From Thermodesulfobacteriota bacterium (GTDB taxonomy: Bacteria > Desulfobacterota > Desulfarculia > JACQYL01), in assembly GCA_963675595.2 (NCBI GenBank), contig CAXXLZ010000002.1:3072001-3136000 (forward strand): a stretch of DNA of 64,000 nt. Reading direction: 5' to 3'. The position numbers and the translations under genes are program-made. The stretch's first letter is position 1. Each line of letters begins with the position of its first letter. The notes below the pieces were generated by a model, which did no database searches, was not told where the DNA came from, and worked only from the letters and a program-made list of their open reading frames with translations. Below are positions 31,629 to 64,000 of this stretch, piece by piece.

Positions 31629-34600
31629 TCAGGATGTCAACGAGTTGAGTTTGGTCGAAGTTACATCCATGATGGTTCCGATGACTTTGAGCACTCGTTC
31701 GTCCTCCAACACGGCTTCGGCTCGTGTGCGAACACGTTTGGTCCGGCCCGAGAAATCCACGAAATCGCATTCAAGGTCATAAGGCTCGCCGACTTCGCAG
31801 CAGGCCTCAAACGCCTTTTGGACCCGTTCACGATCCCCGGGAACGTAACAATCCAGGCTGTGATCGATATGCTTCTTGGAACCCGGTTGAATCGCCAGGG
31901 GGTCCAGCCCGTGAATGCGATAGACTTCGTCGGACCAGTACATGGTGCTCGTTCCAATGGTCCATTCCCAGCCTCCGATGCGGGCCAGTCGCTGCGCGGT
32001 ATTGAGAAGTTCGGTGATTCGGCGAAGGCTGGTTTCCGTTTGCTTACGTTGAGTGACGTCGATCGCCAATTCGAAACGGACAAGCCGGCCATCGGGCCAT
32101 TGAATAGCGCGATCCGTGATATCGTAATCAGCACGGGTGACCGGATTGTGAAACTCCCACCGGTGAGGCCGTGGGGAATCCTTTCGAATAATCTCGTTTG
32201 TACAGAACTCACAGGGCGAAAGTCTTTTCTGCAACGCCTTGAAACAAACTGCGCCGACGATATCCTTACCGAAAGCATTCTTGGCCGCCTTATTGGCGAA
32301 AAGTACCTCATAATTGTTCATGTCGGAGACGTAAATGATTTCGTCGATGCTGTCGAAAATCGACAGGAGTTGAGCACGCTCCAATCTCAGGCTTTCTTCG
32401 AATCGCTTGAGAGGTCCGACATCCGTAAAGGCGATGACCACGCCGGAAGATTCGCTCTCGCCGATTCGATAAGGCAGTACCCGCATCAGAAGCCAGTGGC
32501 CCGAATCCGTCCGGCATTCCGTTTCAAGGGCCTTACCCGTATCGATGACCTGGCGCGCGGCGGCCACCGGGTCGATGTCGATCAATGTGTGAGACAGATG
32601 AGACAAGGGGCGATTGAGATCACTTTCCTTGATGCGGTAGACGTTGCGCAACTCCGGAGTGAACCGGCGTATATCGAGGTTTTCGTCCAAGAATAAGGTC
32701 GCGATGCGTGTAGTGGACATCAAGTTGTCCAAATCATTGGTGGTTTCCGTAAGTTCAATGATTTTGGATTGATACTCCGCGTTGACCGTGTGCAATTCTT
32801 CATTGACGGACTGTAATTCTTCGTTGGTGCTTTGAAGCTCTTCATTGCCGGCGAGCAGTTCTTCGTTGGTGGCCTGCAGCTCCTCATTGGAGGTTTCCAG
32901 TTCCTCGATCGTGGCCTGCAAATTCTCTTTGGTGAATTGCAGATCTTGCTCCAGGTCGTAGATGCGCTGCTCGGCTTCCTTGCTGAGATCGAATTCGTTC
33001 ACCGACGCGGACGGGGTCACCTTTTGGTGGGGCGTCCCATCCTGAAGAAGGATCATCGCATTGCGTTCTTGTCCCTTTCTGTGAGGAAGCAGGCGAATAC
33101 GTATTTCCACAATTCGGCCGCCCTCGGAGCTTTCCAGGCGGACGTTCTTGTATCGAACCTCGCCGCCTCCGTGGAAGGCCTTTTGAAGCCCCGTGGACAG
33201 AGGAATGGCCAATTCCTTGGACACAACGCGCGTGATCTCGTTCTGCACGCGACCCGGCGGGAAACGGAGCAAACCGTCGGTGTTTCCCACAACATGCAAC
33301 AATTCCAGCCGCTCGTTCACCACCGCCGCAAATATGTTGAAATCGTCGGCCAGCATCTGCAGCAAATTCTCTTGGAGACGTTCCTCCTCACGTTCGCCGA
33401 GAATGCGAGCTCCGGGCTGTAATCGAGAATACGCGGCAGGAGCCACCGACGTTCTGAACGCCGGAAGCCGGACCGCGTCGGTCAAAGGGCGCTTACGCCC
33501 CCTTGCTCTGTATATCTTGAACTTGTGATGCAGGGGCTCGAACAATTCGCCCTGATCGCCGGGGGTTTCGCTTGTTCCCAACAAGAGCAGGCCGCCTGGG
33601 TGCAGGGAAAAGTTTAGGTAATCGATGATTTTTTTCTGAAGTACGGGCTGAAGGTAGATGAGGAGATTGCGGCAGCTTATCAGGTCGATGCTGGTGAACG
33701 GGGGATCTTTGATGAGATTGTGCTGGGCGAACACCACGATTTCTCTTATGGAACGATGAATTTGATAGCCGTCGTCCCGGTGAACGAAATATTTGGTCAA
33801 CAGGCCGCCGGGGAGGTCTGCCGTTATGCTCTCAGGATAGATCCCGTTTCCCGCGTACATTACGGCGTTTCGATCCAAATCCGTGGCGAATATTTTGATA
33901 TTCGGAGGATTCTCCATTCGGCTCTGACATTCTCGGGCCAGGATGGCAAATGTGTATGCCTCTTCTCCCGTTGAACAACCGGGCACCCAAAAACGGGCTT
34001 CGGCGTGGTTCAGCTTATTCAGAAGAGCAGGCAGATAAGTCTTTCCCAGAACCTCGAAAACCTCGCGATCTCTGAAAAAGCTGGTGACGCCGATTAGGAG
34101 CTCTCGATAGAGGGTTGTCAATTCCTCCGGCCGTGCTTCCAACATGCGTACGTATTCGCGAAGGTCCTTGGCCTGGTTCACCGTGATCCTTCGTTCGATG
34201 CGGCGTAATACGGTGCTCGATTTATAAAAGGTGAAATCGACCTTTGTCTGTTCCCTCAAGAGGGCGAATATCCTTGTCAAGCCGTCTTCGTCGGAAAGAA
34301 GCGCCTTGGGCCGATCGGCCGGTGCGCCGGTTCTGCGGACTGCAAAAGATACCAGTCGGCCGGGCATTTCTTCGGGAGGCAACACGATATCGGCAAGCCC
34401 TGTAGATATGGCGGCCCTCGGCATGCCGTCGAACTTGGCGGAGGCCTCGCTTTGCACCATCACCATGCCGCCTGCTTCCTTTACGGCGCGCACTCCGCGC
34501 ACGCCGTCGCTTCCGGTGCCCGATAGAATGACCGCGATGGCCTTGTCCCCCTGGTCCTCGGCCAAGGACATGAGAAATACGTCGATGGGCAGGTTGATTC

Positions 34601-34973
34601 CTTGATTGGGATCGAAATCCCTCAAGAGCAGCTTGCCGTGGAAGACGCTGAGTTGCTTGCGGGGGGGGATGAGATAAACGCTGTTAGGCTCGACGCGGAG
34701 GCCTTCCTCGGCCCGCAGTACGGGCATGGTCGTACGTTTGGAAAGCAGCTCCACCATCAGACTTTTGTAATCCGGAGATAGATGTTGGATGACTACGAAA
34801 GCCATTCCGGAGTCCGGAGGCATATGCGAGAAGAAAACGTCCAACGCTTCGAGACCTCCGGCTGATGCGCCGATGCCCACATAATAGAGGGGCTCGGGAA
34901 GCGATGCCGTGGTTTCAGTCTGCGGGCCTTCCGATTCAAGGCCTTCCGATTCAAGGACTTCCGTTTCGCGCAT
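31629..34973 (-). CDS. CheB methylesterase - CheR methyltransferase - coiled coil - PAS fusion with no kinase/cyclase output
   Basis: [18 protein letters not shown] (CheB triad); [22 protein letters not shown] (CheR); NEEL heptad repeats; PAS domains up to the stop. Confidence 0.92.
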   Translation of the reverse strand: [1114 protein letters not shown]

Positions 34974-35190
34974 GGGTCGGCGCCTTTCGCGTAGAGGCGG
35001 AAAAAGGGCGGTAAACCGGCTCCCGGAAGGGACCGGTTGAGGATATCAAAGGACGATCTTGACCTATCCATTATTTATCACGGGCTTATGGTCAGGGTCT
35101 ACCTGTCTCGATGGACGAAGCGGTATCTGCAATCCGGCCCCTCCGATCGGCCGACCGGGACAACGAATCCACGGTGGGCTCCAGAGAGTC

Positions 35191-63004: not shown

Positions 63005-63270
63005 AATCGTTTGAAATCGCGACGGGCCGAGTCCCCGGGAAGGGTGAGGAGGTTTCATGAATGCAGAGATTGGAAACGACGGATGCCCCGGATTTCTCCT
63101 CAGGACGGCGCCAAGCGAATCCAAAGAGGCACGATGGGGAGTGCCGTTGTTTCGCGACGTATCCAAAACGAAGTATGGCCTAACGGGATTTCGACGATCC
63201 CCACACTGATCGTTTCCCATGGACTTGATACATACATCGACGCGAATTTCCCTTCGACTGGAATCAAGAG

Positions 63271-64000
63271 ATGAGCGACGGAAGAGAACGAGATGGTGAG
63301 TTCCTGAAGAACCTGGGTGATGGAGATGTCCCGGCGACGGCCTCCCGCGACGAAAGAACGGCCGCAACAGGTCCGGATAGGCTTCTGGAGGAACTTCGCG
63401 TCCATCAAGCGGAGCTGGAAATGCAGAATGAAGAGCTTCGGGCCGCCCGGGAGTCCATGGAGGTATCATGGGACCGGTTTTCAGCTCTTTTTCATCGCAC
63501 TCCCGTGGGGTATGTGCTTCTCGACGAGAGGGGCATGATCCTGGAAGTGAACGAAACTTTTCTCCGGATGGTCGGGCGTACGAAGGATCGTGTAAGAAAC
63601 GGGGCCTTTTTCGCATTCATCGGGGAAGGAGACAGATCGGTATTTCAAGGGCATTACGAGGCGCTTTTTAACAACCCGGCGGGTAAGTCGGCGGAATTCG
63701 AGCTTCTCACGGAAGGCGAATCCGTTTGGGTTCGGATGGACGCCTCCAGGATCGGTGGCTTCGAGGATTCCCCGATGGAAGAAAAGTCCTTGCTGTTCCT
63801 GACCCTGGGCGATATTTCGGAACGCAAACGGGCGGAAGAACGCGAGAGCCACATCAAGCGGGTGCTGATGGCGGTGCGCAACGTGAACCAATTGATCGTC
63901 CAGGAAACCGATCCTCTGAGACTGATTGACACGGCCTGCAAGAATCTTACGGAAACGTTGGGCTACTTTCAGGCCTGGATCGCCCTGTTGGATGAGACGG
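63271..64000 (+). CDS. PAS/GAF signalling protein, probably another hybrid kinase, truncated by window edge
   Basis: Not in the track. Read manually: MSDGRERDGEF...LLEELRVHQAELEMQNEELRAARESMEVSWDRFSALFHRTPVGYV...LGDISERKRAEE, then the start of a GAF-like domain. The frame is open to the end of the window. Confidence 0.85.
   Translation, partial: MSDGRERDGEFLKNLGDGDVPATASRDERTAATGPDRLLEELRVHQAELEMQNEELRAARESMEVSWDRFSALFHRTPVGYVLLDERGMILEVNETFLRMVGRTKDRVRNGAFFAFIGEGDRSVFQGHYEALFNNPAGKSAEFELLTEGESVWVRMDASRIGGFEDSPMEEKSLLFLTLGDISERKRAEERESHIKRVLMAVRNVNQLIVQETDPLRLIDTACKNLTETLGYFQAWIALLDET

Follow-up and report, generated by a model that had tools for sequence, protein, structure and literature searches.

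The stretch of DNA analysed here (the window: 64,000 nucleotides of a Thermodesulfobacteriota bacterium, assembly GCA_963675595.2, contig CAXXLZ010000002.1, hereafter C2; C2:3072001-3136000 in a genome of 6.79 Mb) encodes a protein in which the adaptation enzymes CheB and CheR are fused, and which ends in PAS domains. The question raised by this locus is where such a fusion, having no transmitter, finds its output, and whether three histidine kinases of the same window, each beginning with a short heptad helix followed by a PAS domain, belong to it. The first-pass annotation of the window had proposed that these helices are methylation substrates, or heteromeric coiled-coil partners, of the fusion, with one methyl writer and eraser setting the activity of several soluble kinases independently of CheA. 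As far as sequence comparison can establish it, there is good support, at the level of the class, for a functional tie between fusion and helix-tagged proteins, because the two co-occur in two phyla, are encoded in conserved tandem pairs and complement each other with respect to the fusion's own output.

The window fusion, encoded in one open reading frame (ORF), has the domain order CheB_methylest - CheR_N - CheR - unnamed middle domain - NEEL heptad coil - PAS_10 - PAS - PAS_3, the last at residues 1011-1101, and the two enzymes thus stand in a single polypeptide (Pfam). The esterase domain begins at residue 32, with no Response_reg match ahead of it, and its columns S37, H64 and D156, which we take to be the catalytic triad, are invariant across the four paralogues of the genome, as is the GCSTGEE motif of the CheR domain. 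The enzymatic domains are of full length and no HisKA, HATPase, REC or GGDEF domain was found by Pfam in the 1114 residues, which bears out the earlier description of a CheB-CheR protein with a heptad run and no transmitter. The middle domain (residues 520-665) gave no meaningful match in a sequence search of the PDB. In the coil, the a positions are occupied by I or N, b and c by E and E (A and E in the last heptad), d by L, and f and g by small residues; the NEEL-type run of 38 residues spans residues 690-727 (window about 32793-32906). Across 88 fusion coils, N is found at a in 95-100% of the sequences in six heptads, the E-E pairs are conserved to 94-100%, and in the central heptads the exposed positions reach 90-100% at b, c, e, f and g together and 90-99% at e, f and g alone, a degree of conservation of exposed positions that is, judging from the alignment, more than packing alone explains.

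By these domain features and the published description, the window fusion is classed as a kinase-less form of the catalogued MAC1 ("methyl-accepting coiled-coil") family; the fusion itself is not a new kind, and its own coil is already proposed to be methyl-accepting for MAC1. The MAC proteins were reportedly catalogued by Wuichet and Zhulin in 2010. In the accessible portions of two sources, MAC1 proteins incorporate CheB and CheR and MAC2 proteins are associated with them (PMC6943060; bioRxiv 10.1101/2022.05.07.491037), and MAC proteins are described as combining receptor and kinase functions in one protein (bioRxiv 10.1101/2022.05.07.491037).

The three window genes that had been noted to start with a shared ELRV(H/Y)QAELEMQNEEL helix and a PAS domain do so, at the positions given. 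Their products have a non-conserved N-terminal tail of ~45 residues, then ELRV(H/Y)QAELEMQNEELR, then the PAS domain, the helix sequences being EELRVHQAELEMQNEELRCA in kinase 1 (from window position 42539), HELRVYQAELEMQNEELRAA in kinase 2 (from 51995) and EELRVHQAELEMQNEELRAA in kinase 3 (from 63391). All three carry the pattern xELxV[HY]QxELExQNEEL with the adjoining PAS domain, at profile scores of 258-268 bits over model positions 1-164. Fusion coil and kinase helix share the register a = N/Q and d = L, in agreement with the same NEEL register claimed for them before. The true start of kinase 2 is probably 51875, because the database protein P0006 has 1537 aa, and the complete ORF of kinase 3 in the genome (P0009) encodes 1289 aa with the order PAS-GAF-HisKA-HATPase-REC. 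The MCPsignal domain is absent from the fusion and from the three helix-tagged kinases; within these window ORFs it was matched by Pfam only in a gene for a methyl-accepting chemotaxis protein (MCP).

The strongest argument for the tie comes from the output of the fusions themselves. Eighty fusion loci were collected by a contig scan, with one genome per species, and the sequence after PAS_10 was searched with Pfam. By the record titles the loci come from at least eight phyla, the titles covering Pseudomonadota, Desulfobacterota, Gemmatimonadota, Chloroflexota, Planctomycetota, Bacillota, Cyanobacteria, Bacteroidota, Nitrospirota, Thermotogota, Spirochaetota, Myxococcota and Verrucomicrobiota, with a Methanosarcinales metagenome-assembled genome in addition. 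Thirty-three fusions have an output of their own (HisKA/HATPase, REC or GGDEF-EAL), 45 have only PAS/GAF domains or nothing, and two could not be classified. An adjacent helix gene accompanies 34 of the 45 output-less fusions and none of the 33 with their own output; 32 of the 34 were found by pattern and two by profile, namely HKVELEMQNEEL and one gene lying directly upstream. Among the 13 partners scanned with Pfam, eight were kinases, three GGDEF-EAL proteins and two short proteins without a Pfam match. Since the partner is present where the fusion lacks output and absent where the fusion has its own, the helix proteins seem to provide what kinase-less MAC1 proteins lack, namely their output. 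An origin of the helix as a leftover of the linker between PAS_10 and PAS in fusions that carry a kinase was rejected, with neither a strict nor a loose motif inside any of 78 fusion ORFs.

Phylogenetic profiling of the motif against CheB-CheR fusions, as suggested at first pass, revealed their co-occurrence in two phyla. Helices were sought with a degenerate DNA pattern for [HY]QxELxxQNxEL, with the same pattern reversed as the control, and fusions with a fusion-specific profile of middle domain, coil and PAS_10 (E <= 1e-20 in the phylum scan). The helix motif is not a product of chance, because the reversed pattern is nearly without matches (1 in 401 genomes, 0 in 301); the helix pattern itself has seven sites in the window's genome. 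Within the 401 genomes of the window's phylum the fusion occurs in 70 and the helix in 57, both being present in 53, the helix only in 4, the fusion only in 17 and neither in 327, while in a second phylum (301 genomes, centred on the genome of locus L024) the fusion was found in 61 and the helix in 26, with both in 22 and the helix only in 4. Four PAS-rich genomes used as a control (G006, G015, G017 and G019, 29-47 PAS matches each), which have no fusion, contain 0 helix sites.

The association is frequently one of gene order. In the window's phylum the helix lies 188-2303 nt downstream on the same strand for 46 of the 91 fusion matches, in 42 genomes (the 91 being 100 matches listed minus nine second fragments or short partial matches), and among the 127 helix sites listed (135 in total) 52 stand directly downstream of a fusion and 79 within 35 kb. 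Strong fusion-profile matches were obtained in six of 20 relatives, in eight genes, seven of which are followed directly and on the same strand by a full-length helix-PAS gene; the eighth (L015) itself carries PAS-HisKA-HATPase-REC and is without a helix gene. In the second phylum, with adjacency counted by eye, a tandem pair is present in 13 genomes and a helix within about 10 kb in eight more. Several helix proteins per fusion are common, as in G309 with 17 helix sites to one fusion. A distinct helix sub-family, HQEEL[RS]xQNEEL, to which most of those eight belong, is transcribed divergently from fusions of a weaker-matching sub-family (E 1e-49 to 1e-56) at a distance of about 2 kb; it occurs in G448, G464, G496, G520, G536, G560, G568 and G616, where a second copy is usually 8-10 kb away.

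The tag shared by these partners has a regular anatomy. In 53 partner N-termini a first motif, (D/E)LRxRAE, is followed by a variable linker of ~20 residues and then by LLHELxVHQxELExQNEELRxAQxxLExSRxRYxxLFxxAPVGY; motif 1 sits about 35-40 residues before the helix Asn, is present in most adjacent partners, including L002:8655-10025 (-), and could act as a tether or as a peptide for docking. Across 43 partner helices, the a positions hold L, Q (93%), N (100%) and Q (58%), the d positions Leu (81-98%) and the c positions Glu (79%, 98% and 91%), the first Glu of the E-E pair being conserved to 86% and the second to 91%. The helix is found in 83 of 120 listed database homologues, with 80 of 84 sites within the first 110 residues. 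AlphaFold2, given a 43-row alignment, predicted module residues 2-42 (kinase-1 residues 38-78) as one continuous helix running into a PAS fold, with a mean predicted local distance difference test score (pLDDT) of 86. The first PAS domain of the partners is homologous to PAS_10 of the fusions (hhalign probability 97.8% with deep and 77% with shallow alignments); in the profile-profile comparison of the partner module with coil-PAS_10 the PAS parts align and the helices do not, so a common descent of helix and coil is unsupported. A PDB sequence search with the partner profile returned PAS domains only, with no solved chain covering the helix, and a scan of NCBIfam gave no family above the cut-off except the generic PAS 'sensory_box'. 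Complex prediction for two copies of coil-PAS_10 with two of helix-PAS (alignments of 88 and 43 rows) gave no answer, its score of 0.00 being evidence neither way.

The features of the window are collected in Table 1. The genome contains four CheB-CheR fusions, none with a transmitter, and nine full-length helix-PAS modules. One fusion paralogue (C2:4236505-4239834) is 97% identical to that of the window and lies within a segmental duplicate (C2:4.236-4.258 Mb, about 1.13 Mb away, 80-89% identical) of the window fusion, the MCP and kinases 1 and 2. An inverted copy of the window's transposase (93% identity) is located nearby, at C2:4230473-4232028. The third fusion, C2:3337936-3341028(-), is immediately followed by a gene of 418 aa with the order helix-PAS-HisKA_2-HATPase. 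A further paralogue, L005:7472-10756 (-), which is G000:C2:2237471-2240791, carries after its last PAS domain a Cys-rich tail of ~50 residues (CxxC ... CxxC), absent in the other three. A CheB esterase domain unfused to CheR is also present at G000:C2:418334-418855 (+), in an ORF of 358 aa, and has 45-49% identity to MAC1 esterase domains versus 28-31% to canonical CheBs. In the window, the genes on the plus strand between the fusion and kinase 1 (36288-42219) encode in turn the MCP, a single REC, REC-TPR, TPR and CheW-REC proteins, and those at 46907-48693 (+), between kinase 1 and the next PAS kinase, a B12-binding protein and a URO-D family protein (a corrinoid methyltransferase-like pair). 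A rare class of CheW is linked with MAC1 in the accessible part of one source (bioRxiv 10.1101/2022.05.07.491037).

Table 1. Positions of the fusion, the helix-tagged kinases and neighbouring features in the window
Feature	Position	Strand	Basis and remarks
DDE_5 transposase ORF, directly downstream of the fusion stop codon	29905..31410	+	Pfam
CheB-CheR fusion gene, classed as kinase-less MAC1-type	31629..34973	-	1114 aa; Pfam and translation
PAS_10 domain of the fusion, residues 748-852	32418..32732	-	Pfam
MAC coil, seven heptads, residues 689-737	32763..32909	-	Translation and 88-sequence alignment
CheR_N and CheR S-adenosylmethionine (SAM)-dependent methyltransferase domain, residues 232-481	33531..34280	-	Pfam CheR_N 5e-13; CheR 2-189/195, 3e-46
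CheB methylesterase domain, residues 32-207	34353..34880	-	Pfam CheB_methylest 1-174/174, E 2e-58
Transmembrane MCP (4HB_MCP_1 and MCPsignal), divergent from the fusion	36288..38282	+	Pfam; local rival substrate
CheW-REC (CheV-like) gene just upstream of kinase 1	41284..42219	+	Pfam
Helix-tagged hybrid kinase 1	42416..46891	+	Tail - helix - PAS - PAS_3 - GAF - PAS x4 - HisKA - HATPase - REC (Pfam)
Conserved four-heptad helix of kinase 1, residues 40-65	42533..42610	+	Q48, N55, Q62 at a; E43, E50, E57 at c
Helix-tagged hybrid kinase 2	51830..56488	+	Helix - PAS - GAF - PAS x3 - HisKA - HATPase - REC x2 - Hpt (Pfam)
Conserved helix of kinase 2	51986..52063	+	Profile match
Helix-tagged kinase 3, 5' part (ORF continues beyond the window end)	63271..64000	+	Translation and Pfam
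Conserved helix of kinase 3	63382..63459	+	Profile match

NEEL-type heptads were encountered in the same genome in one more setting. The MAC2-like cassette L096 (G000:C2:2249000-2260000) consists of a gene for a periplasmic-binding protein, then one for a kinase of 1669 aa, then overlapping genes for a stand-alone CheR (303 aa) and a REC-less CheB (208 aa), with neither CheA nor CheW in the cassette. The kinase has the order dCache-HAMP-GAF-PAS-GAF, the NEEL-type heptads QQEELKTSNEEL and QQEELQVSNEEL just before HisKA, and three REC domains. Such heptads thus stand beside CheR and CheB in three arrangements: in cis, in an adjacent partner, and in a kinase followed by separate enzymes. Since the L096 enzymes carry no coil to dock on, this tilts towards a substrate role of the heptads. 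In the identity matrices of CheR and CheB the stand-alone L096 pair showed no clear grouping with the MAC1 domains (30-36% vs 25-35%).

The reading that we prefer is of a split MAC1 system in the window, in which the fusion would be one half and the three helix-tagged kinases candidate second halves, with methylation in trans as the most likely chemistry; we judge this somewhat more probable than the contrary. In such a system the CheB-CheR-coil-PAS_10 protein would be a kinase-less MAC1 sensor, and a widespread class of histidine kinases and GGDEF-EAL proteins would supply the output that the fusions lack. Members of this class open with a short tail, which leads into a four-heptad helix of consensus LLHELxVHQxELExQNEELRxAQ and on to a PAS domain akin to PAS_10; the helix has polar Q/N/Q in its a positions, Leu in d and a Glu stripe along c, and would serve as the coupling element. 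Through the CheR and CheB domains, the c-position Glu of N-E-E-L-type heptads would gain and lose methyl groups, in the fusion's own coil as well as in trans on the partner helix, and the changed charge and packing of the helix would be relayed through the PAS domain to the kinase. The window kinases may be served by one of the genome's four fusions. In its broadest form, that of a trans-acting adaptation module in which one soluble CheB-CheR sensor adds methyl groups to, and removes them from, a portable four-heptad N-terminal tag of many kinases and cyclic di-GMP (c-di-GMP) enzymes without CheA, CheW or an MCP, the proposal is tentative, and we would put less trust in it than in its denial.

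A number of observations weigh against this interpretation, beginning with the window itself. Kinases 1, 2 and 3 lie 7.4, 16.9 and 28.3 kb from the fusion on the opposite strand and are not adjacent to it; motif 1 (LRxRAE) is reduced to a vestige, IRRPAEQ, in kinase 1 and is missing from kinases 2 and 3; and the transposase fills the slot where other genomes carry the partner gene. At the duplicate locus the fusion is followed by a convergent KaiC-like gene and an integrase fragment, neither copy having an adjacent helix gene. By their N-termini and positions the three kinases are classed as dispersed, non-adjacent paralogues of the partner class, unlike the adjacent-partner type. Thus, of the link proposed at first pass, the functional tie has stood at class level, but its application to the window has met the lack of adjacency, the lack of motif 1 in two kinases and, in the MCP beside the fusion, a local rival substrate; that these kinases are clients of some fusion is plausible, at even odds or slightly better. 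As to the class, no fusion of the helix-PAS module to CheB or CheR was seen, either among the 120 database homologues listed or among 78 fusion ORFs. The methylation consensus of MCPs is E-E-x-x-A-S/T, and the flanks of the partner E-E pair fit it less well than do the fusion's own heptads. The first-pass annotation had named independence of the motif from CheB-CheR fusions as telling against the link: the motif is accompanied by a fusion in 53 of 57 and 22 of 26 helix genomes, but eight of the 83 helix-positive genomes have no strong fusion match (three of these with coil-only matches in long ORFs), G029, G084, G455, G495 and G599 have the helix and no fusion match even at E 1e-3, and no CheR domain was found in the helix-positive G029 and G599. 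The Fisher p-value for the co-occurrence, 4e-46, overstates the case because kin genomes are not independent, and for the same reason the co-occurrence counts describe a pattern and fall short of proof. Finally, MAC proteins are stated to be experimentally uncharacterised in any respect, methylation included, in the accessible part of one source (bioRxiv 10.1101/2022.05.07.491037).

The same data may be read as docking only, the partner helix being no substrate and its polar-core heptads pairing with the Asn-ladder coil, or its PAS domain with PAS_10, so that only the fusion coil would be methylated and the signal would pass through a heteromeric complex. The common register of the two helices and the homology of the partner PAS domain to PAS_10 are consistent with it, as are weak alignments of the A1 profile to the last coil heptads and PAS_10 of two fusions (E 3.8e-5 and 4e-4), and the tandem pairs and output complementarity fit docking as well as they fit the substrate reading. 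However, a NEEL-type helix is found also in the L096 kinase, whose stand-alone CheR and CheB offer no coil, the exposed c-position Glu of the partners is conserved as much as the core positions, and helix proteins can far outnumber fusions in a genome, the ratio reaching 17 to 1; we hold docking alone to be unlikely, though it has a real share of the probability. Should the association instead be a generic one, the helix would be the N-terminal dimerisation helix of one PAS subfamily, brought together with fusions by shared descent, joint horizontal transfer or signalling-rich genomes, which would agree with the ordinary character of the PAS domain after the helix, with the fact that 75 of the 127 helix sites listed do not directly follow a fusion, and with the few genomes that have the helix without a fusion. 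This explanation is very improbable, as two phyla show the association, as do loci drawn from eight phyla or more, PAS-rich genomes without the fusion have no helix, and the contrast between 0/33 and 34/45 is not expected from descent alone.

The remaining alternative is local: the window fusion may serve the MCP and the REC, TPR and CheW-REC genes after it, the kinase helices being unrelated to the window fusion. The MCP is 1.3 kb from the fusion start, contains EE stretches of the methylation-site type, and has been kept together with the fusion in the segmental duplicate; its C-terminal SFDSF resembles what we take to be the CheR-tether pentapeptide, x[WF]xxF. An MCP within 5 kb of the fusion was found, however, in only 2 of 80 other loci and in 0 of 8 loci of the relatives, whereas a helix gene stands beside 34 of the 45 output-less fusions, and for its MCPs the genome could rely on two canonical CheA-CheB-CheR clusters. 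The MCP was rejected as a conserved neighbour of the fusion on the 2/80 count, and as the target of the window fusion it is improbable, less so only than the generic helix.

Compared with MAC1 as far as the accessible text describes it, the split system proposed here has the same CheB and CheR in one polypeptide, Glu-rich coiled coil and PAS domains with no CheA or MCPsignal, and is likewise predicted to be methyl-accepting; it differs in that the window fusion has no kinase, the output residing probably in other proteins, which carry a short copy of the heptad helix at their N-terminus. To MAC2, within the same limits of the source, it is similar in that the enzyme and the coil-bearing kinase would be separate proteins, an arrangement seen in L096, whereas the window enzymes are fused to their own coil and PAS_10 and the partner has about four heptads at its extreme N-terminus and not a coil ahead of HisKA. 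With the Escherichia coli receptors Tar and Tsr and their CheR and CheB it shares Glu pairs every seven residues on an exposed helix face, the second Glu more conserved, and the enzyme families; unlike them it has no MCPsignal, no four-helix hairpin bundle and no CheA/CheW coupling, its CheB is without REC, and the partner flanks fit the consensus only partly. The same domain fusion is covered by KEGG K13924 and the JGI name 'two-component system, chemotaxis family, CheB/CheR fusion protein', a label that states neither function nor partner. Within the literature searched, a scope that did not extend to Wuichet and Zhulin 2010, no paper with the helix motif strings was found and no published description of the partner class of helix-tagged proteins; what turned up on CheB/CheR fusions and K13924 was limited to gene lists and unrelated matches, and of five papers with the phrase 'methyl-accepting coiled coil' none is an experimental study by title or abstract.

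To our knowledge, reversible Glu methylation has been established so far for chemoreceptors only. The pattern described here offers a small and well-defined test object, made up of one fusion, one helix of 30 residues and two or three Glu, together with the clear prediction that a partner appears only beside fusions lacking an output. Should the fusion use the helix tag as a substrate or as a docking site, adaptation by methylation would reach ordinary histidine kinases and c-di-GMP enzymes across many phyla, and, if the trans-acting reading is true, otherwise unrelated cytoplasmic kinases and c-di-GMP enzymes would possess a methylation memory, with as many as 17 tagged proteins to one fusion in a single genome.

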